Shown piece after piece: positions 9,854-56,437 of a stretch of 64,000 nucleotides of DNA (position 1 is the first letter of the stretch; the number at the start of each line of letters is the position of its first letter). Below the pieces are notes generated by a model, which was not told the origin of the DNA, did not search any database, and was given only the letters and a program-made list of their open reading frames with translations. The stretch is from NCBI RefSeq assembly GCF_024700885.2, contig NZ_CP117016.1. The stretch is one strand, 5' to 3'. This DNA is from Escherichia coli. GTDB taxonomy: Bacteria > Pseudomonadota > Gammaproteobacteria > Enterobacterales > Enterobacteriaceae. A program made the position numbers and the translations under genes.

Positions 9854-10560
9854 TCGAACTCGTGATTGTATCGCGTCTCCTTGAATATCCGGATGCTGCC
9901 TTATGGCAGCATCAACAAGAGATGTTTGAGGCGATTGCCGCGTCGAAAAATCTGCCAAAAGAGGATGCCCACGCGCTGGGCATTTTCCTGCGCGATTTAA
10001 CGGCGATGGATCCGCTCGATGCTCAGGCCCAGTACAGCGAACTGTTCGACCGTGGCCGCGCCACGTCGTTGTTGCTGTTTGAACATGTGCACGGCGAATC
10101 CCGCGACCGCGGTCAGGCGATGGTAGACCTGCTGGCGCAGTATGAGCAGCACGGTTTGCAGTTAAACAGCCGCGAATTGCCGGACCATCTGCCGCTGTAT
10201 CTGGAGTACCTGGCGCAGCTGCCGCAAAGCGAAGCCGTGGAGGGTTTGAAAGATATTGCGCCGATTCTGGCATTGCTGAGTGCGCGTCTGCAACAGCGTG
10301 AAAGCCGTTATGCCGTGCTGTTTGATCTGCTGCTGAAACTGGCGAATACCGCAATCGACAGCGACAAAGTGGCGGAAAAAATTGCCGACGAAGCGCGCGA
10401 CGATACGCCGCAGGCGCTGGATGCTGTCTGGGAAGAAGAGCAGGTTAAATTCTTTGCTGACAAAGGCTGCGGTGATTCAGCAATCACTGCCCATCAACGT
10501 CGCTTTGCCGGTGCCGTCGCGCCGCAATATCTGAATATCACCACCGGAGGACAGCACTAA
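9850..10560 (+). CDS. narJ: nitrate reductase assembly chaperone
   Basis: 236-aa ORF translationally coupled between narH and narI. Confidence 0.9.
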
Positions 10561-11237
10561 TGCAATTCCTGAATATGTTCTTCTTTGATATCTACCCGTA
10601 CATAGCCGGGGCGGTCTTCCTGATTGGTAGCTGGCTGCGTTATGACTACGGGCAGTATACCTGGCGCGCGGCGTCCAGCCAGATGCTGGATCGCAAAGGG
10701 ATGAACCTGGCGTCGAACCTGTTCCATATCGGTATTCTGGGGATTTTTGTCGGTCACTTCTTCGGTATGCTGACGCCGCACTGGATGTATGAAGCCTGGC
10801 TGCCGATTGAAGTGAAACAGAAAATGGCGATGTTTGCTGGTGGTGCCAGCGGCGTGCTGTGTCTGATTGGCGGCGTACTGTTGCTGAAACGTCGTCTGTT
10901 CAGCCCACGCGTGCGTGCAACGACTACCGGAGCGGATATCCTGATCCTGTCGCTGCTCGTTATCCAGTGCGCACTCGGCCTGCTGACCATTCCTTTCTCC
11001 GCCCAGCATATGGATGGTAGCGAGATGATGAAACTGGTTGGCTGGGCGCAGTCGGTGGTGACCTTCCACGGTGGTGCTTCTCAACACCTTGATGGCGTGG
11101 CGTTTATCTTCCGTCTGCACCTGGTACTGGGGATGACGTTATTCCTGCTGTTCCCGTTCTCACGTCTGGTGCACATCTGGAGCGTACCGGTGGAGTATCT
11201 GACACGTAAGTATCAGCTGGTGCGCGCTCGTCACTAA
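10560..11237 (+). CDS. narI: respiratory nitrate reductase A gamma subunit (cytochrome b)
   Basis: 225-aa polytopic membrane ORF, last gene of narGHJI. Confidence 0.93.
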
Positions 11238-11257
11238 GCGAATTTTAGTTTGCATAG

Positions 11258-11282
11258 ACCCCGCTTCGGCGGGGTTTTTTTA
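11258..11282 (+). terminator. rho-independent terminator of narGHJI
   Basis: GC stem accccgc/gcggggt with ttcg loop followed by a T-run, 20 bp after the narI stop. Confidence 0.8.
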
Positions 11283-11357: not shown

Positions 11358-11417
11358 AAACGCGGTGCCATTGGGCAGAATTAGCTCGGAGTAACAGGTT
11401 TTGAGTATTTACAGGAA

Positions 11418-12132
11418 GTGATGGTGGTGGGGGAAGGATTACTCAGCGCTGCGCGCTTCACCCTTCGGGTCGTTGCCTGCGGCAACGCTTTCTCGCTGGC
11501 GCTCGAGTCGCACCTTGGTCGAAGCTTCTCATCCTTCCCCGCATGGGCAGAATATTTAATTGCGGATTCGTTTGAGAGTTCACGGACTTTTGAAAAGTGA
11601 TGGTGGTGGGGGAAGGATTACTCAGCGCTGCGCGCTTCGCCCTTCGGGTCGTTGCCTGCGGCAACGCTCTCTCGCTGGCGCTCGAGTCGAACCTTGGTCG
11701 AAGCTTCTCATCCTTCCCCGCATGGGCAGAATATTTAATCGCGGATTCGTTTGAGAGTTCACGGACTTTTGAAAGTGATGGTGGTGGGGGAAGGATTACT
11801 CAGCGCTGCGCGCTTCGCCCTTCGGGTCGTTGCCTGCGGCCACGCTCTCTCGTTGGCGCTCGAGTCGAACCTTGGTCGAAGCTTCTCATCCTTCCCCCGC
11901 TTGGGCAGAATATTTAATTACGGATTCGTTTGAGAGTTCAGGGACTTTTGAAAGTGATGGTGGTGGGGGAAGGATTACTCAGCGCTGCGCGCTTCGCCCT
12001 TCGGGTCGTTGCCTGCGGCCACGCTCTCTCGCTGGCGCTCGAGTCGAACCTTGGTCGAAGCTTCTCATCCTTCCCCGCATGGGCAGAATATTTAATCGCG
12101 GATTCGTTTGAGAGTTCACGGACTTTTGAAAG
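11418..12132 (-). repeat. rtT: rtT tandem repeats downstream of tyrV (four ~178-179-bp units, each ending in the tRNA-Tyr 3' segment)
   Basis: Unit starts at 11418, 11597, 11775, 11954 (next unit is tyrV at 12133), plus a degenerate partial unit at ~11340-11417; an Arg-rich small ORF ([24 protein letters not shown], ~11458-11532, -) resembles the recalled protamine-like Tpr. Confidence 0.8.
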
Positions 12133-12135
12133 TGA

Positions 12136-12220
<85 letters not shown>

Positions 12221-12254
12221 AGGGGTAATTCAAATTTTGAGGTAATGCTTGAGA

Positions 12255-12339
<85 letters not shown>

Positions 12340-12384
12340 ACGGGGTAATGCTTTTTACTGGCCTGCTCCCTTATCGGGAAGCGG

Positions 12385-12420
12385 GGCGCATCATATCAAA
12401 TGACGCGCCGCTGTAAAGTG
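12385..12420 (-). promoter_or_regulatory. tyrT promoter (-35 TTTACA, -10 TATGAT, GC-rich discriminator)
   Basis: On the minus strand TTTACA (12412-12417) and TATGAT (12390-12395) with 16-bp spacer and GCGCCCCGC discriminator; matches the recalled classic stringently controlled tyrT promoter. Confidence 0.8.
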
Positions 12421-12498: not shown

Positions 12499-13341
12499 TT
12501 AAAGAATAATCGTCCGATTACCGTAAACAAAGACGCGCTGCGCCAGTACTTTGTAGAGTGCGCGACTTAAGACGTTTTTCTCGACGTCACGACCTGCGCG
12601 CATCATATCTTCAGCTGTGTAGGTATGATCGACATGAATAACGTCCTGCATGATGATTGGACCTTCGTCCAGATTGTCATTCACATAGTGAGCGGTTGCG
12701 CCAATAATCTTCACGCCACGTTCATAGGCCTGGTGATAAGGACGTGCGCCGATAAACGCTGGCAGGAATGAATGGTGAATATTGATGATCTTATTCGGGA
12801 AGCGTGCCACAAATTCTGGCGTTAATACCCGCATATACTTCGCCAGCACCACGTAGTCAGGCTGATAAGCATCAATGGCATCCGCCATCTTTTGATCGTG
12901 CTCGTTGCGGCTTAACCCTTCATGGCTTACCAGCTCAAACGGAATATCAAAACGCTCAACCAGAGAACGTAAAGTATCGTGGTTACCAATAACTGCCGCG
13001 ATTTCGACATCCAGGCCGCCGTAATTGGCTTTCATCAACAAATCGCCGAGGCAATGCGCCTCTTTAGTGACCAGAATCACTATCCGGCGACGACCGGCAG
13101 GATTCAGCTCACGTACGGAGCCTTCTGGCAATGCGCTGTCGAGATCCGCCAGCAGGGTGGAATCATTAAAAATTCCTTCCAGTTCCGTGCGCATAAAAAA
13201 GCGCCCGGTACGGTGATCAACAAATTCATTGTTCTGTACGATATTTAACTCGTGCTTGTAGCAAATATTGGTAATACGTGCGATCAGACCTTTTTGGTCC
13301 GGACAAATAGTACGCAGAACTTTACGTTGGAGTGAATGCAT
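12499..13341 (-). CDS. purU: formyltetrahydrofolate deformylase
   Basis: 280-aa ORF with N-terminal ACT-like domain and formyltransferase core. Confidence 0.93.
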   Translation of the reverse strand: MHSLQRKVLRTICPDQKGLIARITNICYKHELNIVQNNEFVDHRTGRFFMRTELEGIFNDSTLLADLDSALPEGSVRELNPAGRRRIVILVTKEAHCLGDLLMKANYGGLDVEIAAVIGNHDTLRSLVERFDIPFELVSHEGLSRNEHDQKMADAIDAYQPDYVVLAKYMRVLTPEFVARFPNKIINIHHSFLPAFIGARPYHQAYERGVKIIGATAHYVNDNLDEGPIIMQDVIHVDHTYTAEDMMRAGRDVEKNVLSRALYKVLAQRVFVYGNRTIIL

Positions 13342-36537: not shown

Positions 36538-37176
36538 ATGAAAAAGTTAACAGTGGCGGCTTTGGCAGTAACAACTCTTCTCTCTGGCAGTGCCTTTGCG
36601 CATGAAGCAGGCGAATTTTTTATGCGTGCAGGTTCTGCAACCGTACGTCCAACAGAAGGTGCTGGTGGTACGTTAGGAAGTCTGGGTGGATTCAGCGTGA
36701 CCAATAACACTCAACTGGGCCTGACGTTTACTTATATGGCGACCGACAACATTGGTGTGGAATTACTGGCAGCGACGCCGTTCCGCCATAAAATCGGCAC
36801 CAGGGCGACCGGCGATATTGCAACCGTTCATCATCTGCCGCCAACACTGATGGCGCAGTGGTATTTTGGTGATGCCAGCAGCAAATTCCGTCCTTATGTT
36901 GGGGCAGGCATCAACTACACCACCTTCTTTGATAATGGATTTAACGATCATGGCAAAGAGGCGGGGCTTTCCGATCTCAGTCTGAAAGATTCCTGGGGAG
37001 CTGCCGGGCAGGTGGGGGTTGATTATCTGATTAACCGTGACTGGTTGGTTAACATGTCAGTGTGGTACATGGATATCGATACCACGGCTAAGTACAAATC
37101 TGGTGTTACTACCGTAAAAGACTCGGTACGACTGGATCCGTGGGTGTTTATGTTCTCCGCAGGATATCGTTTTTAA
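36538..37176 (+). CDS. ompW: outer membrane protein W
   Basis: 212-aa ORF with signal peptide MKKLTVAALAVTTLLSGSAFA and beta-barrel ending in F. Confidence 0.95.
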   Translation: MKKLTVAALAVTTLLSGSAFAHEAGEFFMRAGSATVRPTEGAGGTLGSLGGFSVTNNTQLGLTFTYMATDNIGVELLAATPFRHKIGTRATGDIATVHHLPPTLMAQWYFGDASSKFRPYVGAGINYTTFFDNGFNDHGKEAGLSDLSLKDSWGAAGQVGVDYLINRDWLVNMSVWYMDIDTTAKYKSGVTTVKDSVRLDPWVFMFSAGYRF

Positions 37177-37180
37177 TTTT

Positions 37181-37239
37181 CTCTGCAAAACCTCTGCAAA
37201 ACCCCTCTGCAAAACTGGTCATCAAATGACCAGTTTTTT
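37181..37239. other. putative attL region: 3 x CTCTGCAAAAC tandem repeat plus ompW terminator hairpin overlapping the int stop codon
   Basis: Repeats at 37181-37191, 37192-37202, 37205-37215; hairpin ctggtcat/atgaccag (37215-37233) followed by TTTTTT; int stop codon lies inside the hairpin. Confidence 0.5.
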
Positions 37240-38352
37240 CCATTCCTTACCGCGTGCATCGTTATAAATATCGGTCATTTTTTGATTCGAATGGCCTAGC
37301 AAAATTTTGGTATCAACCCCCTGCTCTCTGAACAATCGCTCTGATAAAGATCTCTGCTCATGGAAAGAGGGTGGGGTGCCATTAGCACGCCAGTTGTAAT
37401 CCACAGAATCCCGGGCTTTTTTAAATGCAACGGTTAATGTTGCTGGCTTAACCATCCCGCCGCGCTTAGCTGTCCCTTTCGCGTGATGGTGGTGCAATAG
37501 CCACGGACTAAGAACGCAATCGCGGCAGGATGACACTACATCATCCAGGGTGAGATTTAATTTATCGCAACGCAGAGCCAGAGGGATGGCAATCCGGGTT
37601 CCTGTTTTTTGCTGTTCGACATGAAGATAACCATCCCGGATATCCGAAAATTGCATTTTGCAAATATCTGAAAGGCGCTGGCCTGTCATCAGTGCCAGCA
37701 GCATACCGCGCTGTAAAAAGTAACCATCCTTTTCCGCTGCGTTATAAATCATCATCCACTCATCAAAAGTCAGTCGCTGTCTTGATATCCGCACCTGCGG
37801 TTTTTTTGCCGATTCTGCAGGGTTAAAGCCTGGCGGGACATCGCCCGTTTGCTGAGCTTCCCGGAAAACATCGATCAGTACTTTCCTGAAAATTTGTCCC
37901 ATTCTGTTATGTCCTCTGGCCTTGTACTCTTCCAGTACTGATACCACATCTTTTACGGTTATGGCATCTAACGGTCTGGTGCCAAAACGTTCATCAAATA
38001 CCCTGAGAGGGGCCGCTTTCTGTTTCAGCGTGTTGAGTTTGATCTCGCCGTTTTCATATCTTTCCTGTTGAATTTTTCTGTAATTATTCAGAAAAATGGT
38101 AACGGTTGATGAACCGCCGGTATCACTAATAATTTTCTCCTGCAGACTGAGCATTTGTTCCATTTGCTGCCGGGCAAGACGGCTGTTCGCTTCTGCTGCA
38201 ATAGTTTCTGCCAGTTTCTGGTCAATACTGCCGAGACCGTGATTTTTGCCTGTTATGGGATGCCTGTAACGCCAGTAAACTTTGTTATTTCTTTTGTCAA
38301 AATACGGAGATAATCCCGGAACATCGGTTTTATATTTTCGCGGGCGCGCCAT
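37222..38352 (-). CDS. int: tyrosine-type site-specific integrase
   Basis: 376-aa ORF; the C-terminal HxxR...Y catalytic region typical of phage integrases is inferred, not aligned. Confidence 0.9.
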   Translation of the reverse strand: MARPRKYKTDVPGLSPYFDKRNNKVYWRYRHPITGKNHGLGSIDQKLAETIAAEANSRLARQQMEQMLSLQEKIISDTGGSSTVTIFLNNYRKIQQERYENGEIKLNTLKQKAAPLRVFDERFGTRPLDAITVKDVVSVLEEYKARGHNRMGQIFRKVLIDVFREAQQTGDVPPGFNPAESAKKPQVRISRQRLTFDEWMMIYNAAEKDGYFLQRGMLLALMTGQRLSDICKMQFSDIRDGYLHVEQQKTGTRIAIPLALRCDKLNLTLDDVVSSCRDCVLSPWLLHHHHAKGTAKRGGMVKPATLTVAFKKARDSVDYNWRANGTPPSFHEQRSLSERLFREQGVDTKILLGHSNQKMTDIYNDARGKEWKKLVI

Positions 38353-42389: not shown

Positions 42390-43253
42390 GATGGCAGCCT
42401 CCGCGATGAATTTGATTAACTCACCACCGAGGTTTTCCACGACCATAAGGGTGGTGAGACGTACAGGGGTGGAAATACCGGTCATCACGGAACCCGGCCA
42501 GCCTTGCGGCTGCCCTGCACGCCCCACCATAATGCGAATGTGGCTGTGCTTAACGCATAAAAAAACCGCCTGAGCGCGGTTATGCGCCGTGAATGATTTC
42601 GGGTTTCCACGCCCGGCACCCGTTTTATGAGGTGCAGGTGCACTATAATTCCACCCGTTCTGGTTTTCAATAGCTACATTCAACATTTTCTCTACCTTTC
42701 ATCACCGAAGTGAACTTTGTTGATGCGGTGCCTGGTGCCTCCAGGTGATGTTAACCAGTTAACAATTAACGCCGGATACAGAGAATCCACCCATAACACT
42801 GTTTTTGGTTTTAACTGTTCCGCGTGCGCTGAGCCGCATTCACCGCATCACAAAATTCACTTTAAAAAGGGCGGCAGAGCAGTCACGGAGTAAAACTGAT
42901 ACCGCCAAAAGTCACCAGAAAATTGATAACAGAGGGCGTTGCAGCGGAGTTGTCACTTAAGCGTATGGTCAACCTGACAACCCGGTGTCCTCAACGGGGG
43001 AAGGAATAACCCCGCCATACTTACCGCCGCGCCATTTCGCGGAGTGCCACAACCGGAAGCGCACGGTCGAACTAAATTTAACGACACCGTACAGAGAGAC
43101 CAATTTCGCCGTGCGCTTTCGCGTTATGCCCTGACTTTTCAGGGACATATCCTTTCAGTAAACTGTCAGTGCCGGATGTTCACCCGTGTCCGGCGCACGC
43201 ACTCCACCTGACCCGTGGAGAACTCCTTAATTACCAACCCTCAGGAGGGTGAA

Positions 43254-50528: not shown

Positions 50529-50739
50529 TTTCATATTGGCGAGGTGACGGGAGTTAAGTAGAATGGCTGCGGGTGCTTGAGGCTATCTGTCTCAGGCATG
50601 AACACCAAAGGCAGATAGAGAAAAGCCCCAGTTAACATTACGCGTCCTGCAAGACGCTTAACATTAATCTGAGGCCATATCTATGCTCTACACACGTAGG
50701 TTAGCCTCTTACGTGCCGAAAGGCAAGGAGAAGCAGGCT

Positions 50740-50895
50740 ATGAAGCAGCAAAAGGCGATGCTAATCGCCCTGATCGTCATCTGTTTAACCGTCATGGTGA
50801 CGGCACTGGTAACGAGGAAAGACCTCTGCGAGGTACGAATCCGAACCGGCCAGACGGAGGTCGCTGTCTTCACAGCTTACGAACCTGAGGAGTAA
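50740..50895 (+). CDS. hok: Hok/Gef-family type I toxin
   Basis: MKQQKAMLIALIVICLTVMVTALVTRKDLCEVRIRTGQTEVAVFTAYEPEE (51 aa) with AAGGAG Shine-Dalgarno; the in-frame upstream extension from 50683 may be a mok-like leader frame. Confidence 0.85.
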   Translation: MKQQKAMLIALIVICLTVMVTALVTRKDLCEVRIRTGQTEVAVFTAYEPEE

Positions 50896-55273: not shown

Positions 55274-55349
55274 GGCCCTTTAGCTCAGTGGTGAGAGCGA
55301 GCGACTCATAATCGCCAGGTCGCTGGTTCAAATCCAGCAAGGGCCACCA
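55274..55349 (+). tRNA. tRNA-Ile (anticodon CAU, ileZ-like) or tRNA-Met
   Basis: 76 nt; perfect 7-bp acceptor stem (GGCCCTT/AAGGGCC), D and T arms, anticodon loop CTCATAA, 3' CCA. Confidence 0.85.
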
Positions 55350-55449
55350 TCACAAACCGCCATTAGCTTATCAGGAAGAGCAGACGACACGATAACAGGG
55401 TTGTTGGTGCGGGGGCGGGTCCCCGATGGCGGTCCATTATCGGTATTCA

Positions 55450-55526
55450 GCGTTGTTAGCTCAGCCGGACAGAGCAATTGCCTTCTAAGCAATCGGTCAC
55501 TGGTTCGAATCCAGTACAGCGCGCCA
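55450..55526 (+). tRNA. tRNA-Arg (anticodon UCU, argN/argO-like)
   Basis: 77 nt; acceptor stem GCGTTGT/ACAGCGC, anticodon loop CTTCTAA, T loop TTCGAAT, 3' CCA. Confidence 0.85.
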
Positions 55527-55990: not shown

Positions 55991-56437
55991 ATACATATCT
56001 GGATTATCACCGGTTACGGTAAAAAGTGATTGCTTACTGTTTTTGTGAATGGCATTGCAGCAGCCGGATAATGTCAGTGCTGGCTGACGGTGTGCTGGTG
56101 GCGGGTGTGGTGGTTGCTGCTTTCCCGTTGCTGAAAAAGAAAACGCCAGACTGTTAGCCGGGTATCAGTTAGCGGGAGAAATTTTTAAATACTTCACAAT
56201 TCAGGCGGTTGACTGTTGTCTGGTTTGCGGGGAGTTTGTTAAAAGAAACTGGCATGGTGAATCCCCCTGTGCGGAGGGGCAATCAGCGAGTAGGTATATG
56301 GGATAATCGCGGATTCAGGTGCTGGTACTGAATTCACCGGGAGGCACCCGGCACCATGCAATGGCACATAGCGCCACTCTCCAGCCCCTCTCCGGAGGGG
56401 CTGTTTATATTGATTTTGTCAGATGTGAGTAAACTCC

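Follow-up and report, generated by a model that had tools for sequence, protein, structure and literature searches.

The 64,000-nt stretch of Escherichia coli DNA analysed here (the window) has the gene order narI / rtT / tyrV / tyrT / purU, which it shares with K-12, and between narI and tyrV it carries four tandem rtT units of 178/179 bp (11422-12135, minus strand) that lie directly downstream of tyrV (Table 1). Tandem Repeats Finder (TRF) reported 11416-12154 as one tandem array with a period of 179, 4.1 copies and 96% matches, and the Rfam family RF00391 (RtT) matched four times on the minus strand over model positions 1-130, with scores of 123-137.5 bits where the gathering score of the family is 45 bits. 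Beyond these four units, Rfam gave no RtT match in the 64 kb. A 20-mer anchor, ATGGTGGTGGGGGAAGGATT, which from its second base on reads as the tRNA-Tyr 3′ end (last 19 nt) in reverse complement, occurs at the four unit starts (11421, 11600, 11778 and 11957) and again at the ends of tyrV (12135) and tyrT (12254), so that start-to-start spacings along the array are 179/178/179/178 bp. The 19-nt sequence TGGTGGTGGGGGAAGGATT (plus strand) is exact in all four units and in both tRNA genes, and divergence begins right past it. A preliminary description made from the sequence had proposed four full units of about 178 bp after tyrV, each with the 3′ end of tRNA-Tyr, and TRF, Rfam and the anchors agree with it on both points; its limits of 11418-12132 span the four units, with a phase shifted by 3 nt and an end off by 1 nt, which are immaterial.

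Table 1. Positions, strands and evidence for the features of the rtT locus and of the putative prophage in the window
Feature	Position	Strand	Basis	Remarks
narI ORF	10560-11237	+	ORF list	
narI intrinsic terminator hairpin	11256..11277	+	Terminator scan	Distal edge of intergenic region
Possible degenerate partial unit	11370..11421	-	Weak in-register similarity	Distal array end; in K-12 too
rtT unit d4 (distal)	11422..11600	-	Rfam RtT 11422-11553, 131.2 bits	179 nt
Truncated Tpr-like ORF in d4	11458..11532	-	Translation	24 aa, premature stop
rtT unit d3	11601..11778	-	Rfam RtT 11601-11732, 137.5 bits	178 nt
Tpr ORF in d3	11622..11711	-	Translation compared with K-12	29 aa, identical to K-12 Tpr b1229
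rtT unit d2	11779..11957	-	Rfam RtT 11779-11910, 123 bits	179 nt; most divergent of the four
Tpr-like ORF in d2	11800..11889	-	Translation	29 aa; A13T and C17G relative to K-12 Tpr
rtT unit d1 (proximal)	11958..12135	-	Rfam RtT 11958-12089, 131.6 bits; anchor 11957	178 nt; ends in AAUCCUUCCCCCACCACCA
Tpr-like ORF in d1	11979..12068	-	Translation	29 aa; C17G relative to K-12 Tpr
tyrV, tRNA-Tyr(GTA)	12136..12220	-	ARAGORN	Identical to tyrT
tyrT-tyrV spacer	12221..12254	-	Sequence compared with K-12; no RtT match in Rfam	34 bp, without RtT unit
tyrT, tRNA-Tyr(GTA)	12255..12339	-	ARAGORN; Rfam tRNA 53.4 bits	
tyrT operon promoter	12390..12417	-	Consensus scan, 10/12 matches	TTTACA, 16-nt spacer, TATGAT, TG upstream
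purU	12499-13341	-	ORF list	
Integrase-sized ORF	37222-38352	-		Putative prophage
C4, isrK and DicF RNAs	42447-42920			Putative prophage
sok	50571-50745			Putative prophage
tRNA-Met and tRNA-Arg(TCT)	55274-55526			Putative prophage
STnc100	56223-56412			Putative prophage

At the distal end of the array, a degenerate partial unit had also been proposed. Global in-register alignment of 11370-11421 with the last ~55 nt of a unit (plus strand) showed a weak similarity, with a score that was reached by 12 of 1000 shuffles, and a stricter local alignment over ~11370-11420 found a 10-nt match only, which is within the shuffle range and not significant; the partial unit is thus retained as a weak candidate. 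The ‘0.14 unit’ of the classical description is the tRNA 3′ end itself (12136-12154).

The four units are not equally related to one another. Only 1 nt separates d1 from d3, while d2 differs from the other units at 6-10 positions (6-7 from d1 and d3, and 10 from d4). TRF also gives a period of 357 bp for the array, but simple duplication of a two-unit block was rejected because d4 and d2 differ at 10 positions and d3 and d1 at 1. Upstream of the array, tyrT and tyrV form a 92-nt direct repeat of 99% identity; its single mismatch lies in the flank 5′ of the 85-nt gene. The consensus scan found a promoter-like site only upstream of tyrT, at a position that we take to be that of the classical tyrT promoter.

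When compared with K-12 MG1655 (NC_000913.3 1285500-1289000), the window has the rtT/rttR array of that strain (RF00391; b4425, tpr b1229) at the same locus and in the same synteny, with the same 178-bp unit (94-97% identity per unit) and with every unit ending in the 19 nt of the tRNA-Tyr 3′ end. For K-12, TRF puts the 178-bp unit at 3.1 copies, and three unit anchors, at 1210, 1388 and 1566 of the extracted segment, are followed by tyrV; the count of ~3.14 that had been given for the reference was therefore right by the same tools. The comparison drawn from that count stands for the one additional downstream unit in the window, but it missed a fourth, divergent RtT unit (175 bp, 132.9 bits in Rfam) located in the 209-bp tyrT-tyrV spacer of K-12, which spans 1830-2038 of the extracted segment; this unit has about 46-51 differences from the canonical units. 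The 34-bp spacer of the window is what remains of the K-12 spacer when precisely the stretch from one copy of the 19-nt tRNA end to the other is taken out. The arrangement is thus 4+0 in the window and 3+1 in K-12 with a total of four RtT units in each, and the narI-purU intergenic lengths, 1261 bp and 1255 bp respectively, are only 6 bp apart. In summary, the window differs from K-12 in having four downstream units instead of three, no RtT unit in the spacer, and three intact Tpr ORFs instead of one. The K-12 annotation includes a 171-nt rttR.

Among complete E. coli genomes, 19 carry the same 1,501 bp around the array at 99.9-100% identity, and in those 19 the first 25 kb of the window, array included, is 100% identical. 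Their sources include strain 1190 (dog), elppa4, O166:H15 isolates, chicken GPEC strains, human, lake water and seawater, and the RefSeq annotation of strain 1190 lists ‘RtT sRNA’ four times. In three more genomes the 25 kb is about 100% identical, and the rtT/tRNA locus is the sole difference from the window. S1-SRL-01-C is shorter by 357 bp and retains d4 and d3; isolate 3702594 is shorter by 476 bp and retains d2, d1 and one tRNA gene; and GPEC1337, shorter by 119 bp, has four units and one tRNA gene. Within the lineage, 357 bp has thus been lost in two different ways, and tyrT and tyrV have fused at least once. Two records of the near-identical lineage, NZ_CM142779.1 and NZ_CM182088.1, each have one tRNA-Tyr through a 119-bp tyrT/tyrV fusion, possibly by assembly collapse; on these records, tRNA gene dosage varies within the clone. 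In general, some of the assemblies labeled complete could have collapsed repeats.

All deletion endpoints fall in the longest identical direct repeats available (the d1/d3 pair, the pair of tRNA genes, and d2/d4 over their first ~39 nt), as expected for unequal homologous recombination or slippage. The occurrence of such variants in near-identical genomes points to ongoing repeat-mediated recombination, and the rate of rearrangement at rtT is high even within one clone. The pattern suggests that four units are the parental state of this lineage and that the two-unit and one-tRNA forms are derived from it by deletion, a direction (four to two) based on the majority state and the unit identities rather than on a rooted tree. 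The more distant E. coli 042 (98.9% identity) has exactly d4 and d3, and the two-unit form may therefore be old or have arisen more than once. The two-unit alleles of 042 and S1-SRL-01-C resemble the window in their 34-bp spacer, in flanks of 98.9-100% identity and in units identical to d4 and d3; they lack 357 bp, corresponding to d2 and one of the near-identical d1/d3 pair. Unit d3 is identical to the proximal unit of both alleles, and d4 is identical to the distal unit of both and of one other locus (L004).

These relationships bear on the origin of the four-unit array. It could have arisen recently from a K-12-like array of three units that gained one, given its four downstream units compared with three in K-12 and the single difference between d1 and d3, a near-identity suggestive of recent duplication, or of gene conversion, within the array. 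However, every unit of the window differs from every unit of K-12 at 5-11 positions, the tyrT-tyrV spacers differ as well (34 bp and 209 bp), and d2, with its 6-7 differences, sits between d1 and d3, an order that simple tandem duplication cannot give. Moreover, the nearest relatives hold d4 and d3 or d2 and d1, which are subsets of the four-unit array and not K-12-like. Judged by these unit-to-unit differences, neither the addition of one copy to the K-12 array nor the clean duplication of two units as a block accounts for the array, and we consider a K-12 expansion very unlikely.

To place the allele within the species, we searched 5,426 complete E. coli genomes by BLAST with a 148-bp single unit. 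The canonical rtT unit was found in 4,719 of the 5,426, at 10,061 places, leaving 707 genomes with no canonical unit, and the number per genome ranges from 0 to 9 (median 2 among unit-bearing genomes, maximum 9). The distribution of copies was taken from two evenly spaced samples of 60 unit-bearing records each, in which 1, 2, 3, 4, 5 and 6 copies were present in 20, 13, 21, 3, 2 and 1 records of the first sample and in 23, 14, 20, 1, 2 and 0 of the second, with the three-copy class inflated by many K-12 laboratory derivatives. The four-unit state is thus a minority form, at roughly 3% of the 120 sampled unit-bearing genomes. Of the 5,426 genomes, 1,922 (35%) have the K-12-type spacer unit. 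The extremes are represented by GF66.2, with six units and a spacer unit, and by ST131 EC958, with no rtT unit and a single tRNA-Tyr. Flank-to-flank BLAST coverage was unusable for counting alleles, since overlapping pieces are joined and two-unit genomes also reach 100% coverage.

This range, together with the deletions among near-identical genomes, bears out the earlier proposal of a copy-number variant in a recombination-prone array. The count does differ from that of the reference, as had been expected, but the four-unit allele is not unique: 19 genomes are identical and other lineages have four or more units. K-12, at 3+1, is accordingly unrepresentative of a locus that is 4+0 in the window and has 0-9 units species-wide. 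Full-text literature searches found no paper surveying rtT copy-number variation, which is plainly visible in public annotations. The four-unit form is an ordinary, already known allele of a known and highly recombinogenic locus.

Several records in the census deserve separate mention. In EC958 (NZ_HG941718.1 1409393-1412143), genes of the fatty-acid desaturase and sterol desaturase families lie downstream, in the place that narI occupies elsewhere, so the whole neighborhood of tRNA-Tyr differs in ST131. Matches on records labeled as plasmids account for 18 of the 10,061 canonical-unit matches and could be F-prime-like captures or mislabeled replicons. The record NZ_CP026085.1 (‘E. coli DH5alpha’) has 4.83 Mb and one rtT unit with 93.9% identity to that of K-12, where K-12 derivatives have three units at about 100%; this suggests a mislabeled strain.

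Outside the species, a scan with a degenerate 33-nt core pattern located RtT units in 38 DNA stretches (37 contigs, about 35 species) of Enterobacterales, a comparison based on one genome per species. No Escherichia or Shigella representative was among the matches listed, though K-12 and the window match the pattern exactly. At 15 representative loci examined with Rfam, tRNA-Tyr is followed by one to three RtT units, and the tRNA-Tyr genes form a pair in 12, are single in two and are absent within the locus in one; unlike the window, these genomes have at most three downstream units. Spacing between RtT units is like that of the window, at ~172-178 bp, in Citrobacter, Salmonella arizonae, Enterobacter, Klebsiella, Superficieibacter and others, and the start-to-start spacing of the two tRNA genes (119 bp in the window) is 107-121 bp in Salmonella enterica subsp. 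arizonae, Citrobacter, Enterobacter and Superficieibacter. Klebsiella indica (3+1) and K. spallanzanii (2+1) have the K-12 layout, with an RtT unit in the spacer. Because both spacer layouts are found in other Enterobacterales, both are old or recurrent, and the short spacer, as in the window, is the commoner form.

Repeats of this kind belong to the tRNA-linked repeats (TLRs; Egan & Landy 1978 and Rudd 1999, as summarized in PMC8144298). [quoted passage not shown] Like rtT, the rrA, rrB and rrF elements that follow 5S rRNA lie inside stable-RNA operons and copy the upstream 3′ end in their last 18-19 nt, and the TLRs described in PMC8144298 are co-transcribed and processed. Unlike rtT, however, RrA/B/F occur once per operon, between two terminators, and bind both Hfq and CsrA; the TLRs of tRNA operons, rtT included, have a CsrA-binding score below 0.01 and no assigned function (PMC8144298). 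TLRs are described there as repeats that ‘have no known function’ (PMC8144298).

Features specific to RtT are also present in the window, namely the RF00391 scores, the tandem units of ~178 bp and the same-strand site after tRNA-Tyr in the narI-purU interval. We therefore read the region, with a probability of about 0.9, as an rtT array of the TLR class that closes the tyrT-tyrV operon, in a 4+0 allele whose copy number varies in a VNTR-like manner by recombination or slippage.

RNAalifold was applied to 11 units from three strains and gave an Rfam-like fold, with an outer helix of 10 bp (GGGGAAGGAU / AUCCUUCCCC) that is invariant in all 11 and is followed by an unpaired CACCACCA tail. With this helix and single-stranded tail, the predicted 3′ end of RtT would look like a tRNA acceptor end. 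Compensatory change was seen in two pairs only, the units being too similar for covariation, and a single-sequence comparison with shuffles gave no sign of excess fold stability (MFE z-score -0.19); support for the structure thus comes mainly from the curated Rfam model.

Each unit also carries the Arg-rich, Tpr-like small ORF noted in the preliminary description, intact in three units and truncated in one. Tpr (protamine-like protein) goes back to Altman et al. 1981 as that work is cited in PMC11623569. The three intact ORFs of the window compare with one in K-12, where only that of the proximal unit is intact and the other two are cut short after 5 and 9 codons; the K-12 ORF with which that of d3 was compared lies at 1588-1677 of the extracted segment. 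The five substitutions among the Tpr ORFs of the window are without exception non-synonymous or nonsense, and since every one of them changes or truncates the peptide, we see no sign of constraint on it. PGAP annotates no tpr in the identical strain 1190. On the plus strand, ORFs of 60, 106, 93 and 157 aa run across the repeats (11418-12403; e.g. 11597-11917, 106 aa), as counterparts of K-12 ‘ychS’ (b1228); these are most likely by-products of the repeat and not genes.

On the strength of published K-12 work, transcription from the tyrT promoter would cover the units along with the tRNAs, and the tRNA-like 3′ ends of the units would allow the tRNA end-processing machinery to release RtT RNAs of ~170 nt. 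Rho-dependent termination within the array, again going by the K-12 work, should leave the distal units less expressed. The ‘3.14 repeats’ and Rho-dependent termination within them are said to have been described by Rossi et al. 1981 and Kupper et al. 1978, and Bosl & Kersten 1991, together with the former two, reportedly covered transcription, processing and termination of K-12 rtT. Copy number would shift by unequal homologous recombination or replication slippage between near-identical units, for which the d1/d3 pair, with its 1-nt difference, offers a long stretch of homology for deletion, and recombination may also occur between the two tRNA genes, 119 bp apart. As no function is established for the RtT RNA or the Tpr peptide, selection most likely acts little or not at all on the copy-number difference.

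Copy number might instead be functional, with more units or tpr ORFs raising RtT/Tpr dosage or altering termination and processing of the tyrT operon, and with selection maintaining the variation. The three intact 29-aa Tpr ORFs compared with one in K-12, the frequent change inside one clonal lineage, the conservation of RtT arrays beside tRNA-Tyr genes across Enterobacterales and the reported stress-responsive behavior of rttR in transcriptome and mobilome surveys are all in line with such a role. Against it, no TLR of a tRNA operon has a known function and the sole phenotype claimed for rtT, in the stringent response, was retracted (PMC8144298), the 707 genomes without a canonical unit include ST131 EC958, purifying selection on Tpr is not evident in the five substitutions, and the repeat structure alone predicts frequent change. 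We regard a functional copy number as highly improbable. A stronger form, in which rtT is a fast-switching contingency locus whose unit number and intact tpr count tune termination and processing of the tRNA-Tyr operon or RtT/Tpr dosage around selected, lineage-specific set-points, has in our estimate an even slimmer chance. That the fourth unit is an artefact of assembly is barely credible, because although 178-bp tandem repeats as similar as these (94-99% identity) are notorious for causing assembly errors and lengths differ in three genomes of the same lineage, an identical array in 19 independently sequenced complete genomes (25 kb at 100%) excludes a mis-expansion specific to the window, the 1-10 differences between units allow reads to be placed unambiguously, and unrelated haplotypes (L004, GF66.2) also have four or more units.

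The four-unit form matters little beyond bookkeeping, since the array is textbook knowledge on the tyrT operon. What RtT and Tpr do is an old and minor question, which this allele makes no more testable than existing natural variants do. Rearrangement is fast enough for genomes that are otherwise identical to differ here, which could make the locus useful as a VNTR marker at fine scale and a place to check in assemblies.

In the remainder of the window, collinearity with strain 1190 stops just after ompW (ORF 36538-37176). The segment at 37179-64000, which is absent from strain 1190 at the same site, looks like a lambdoid prophage, with an integrase-sized ORF near its start and the RNA genes listed in Table 1.
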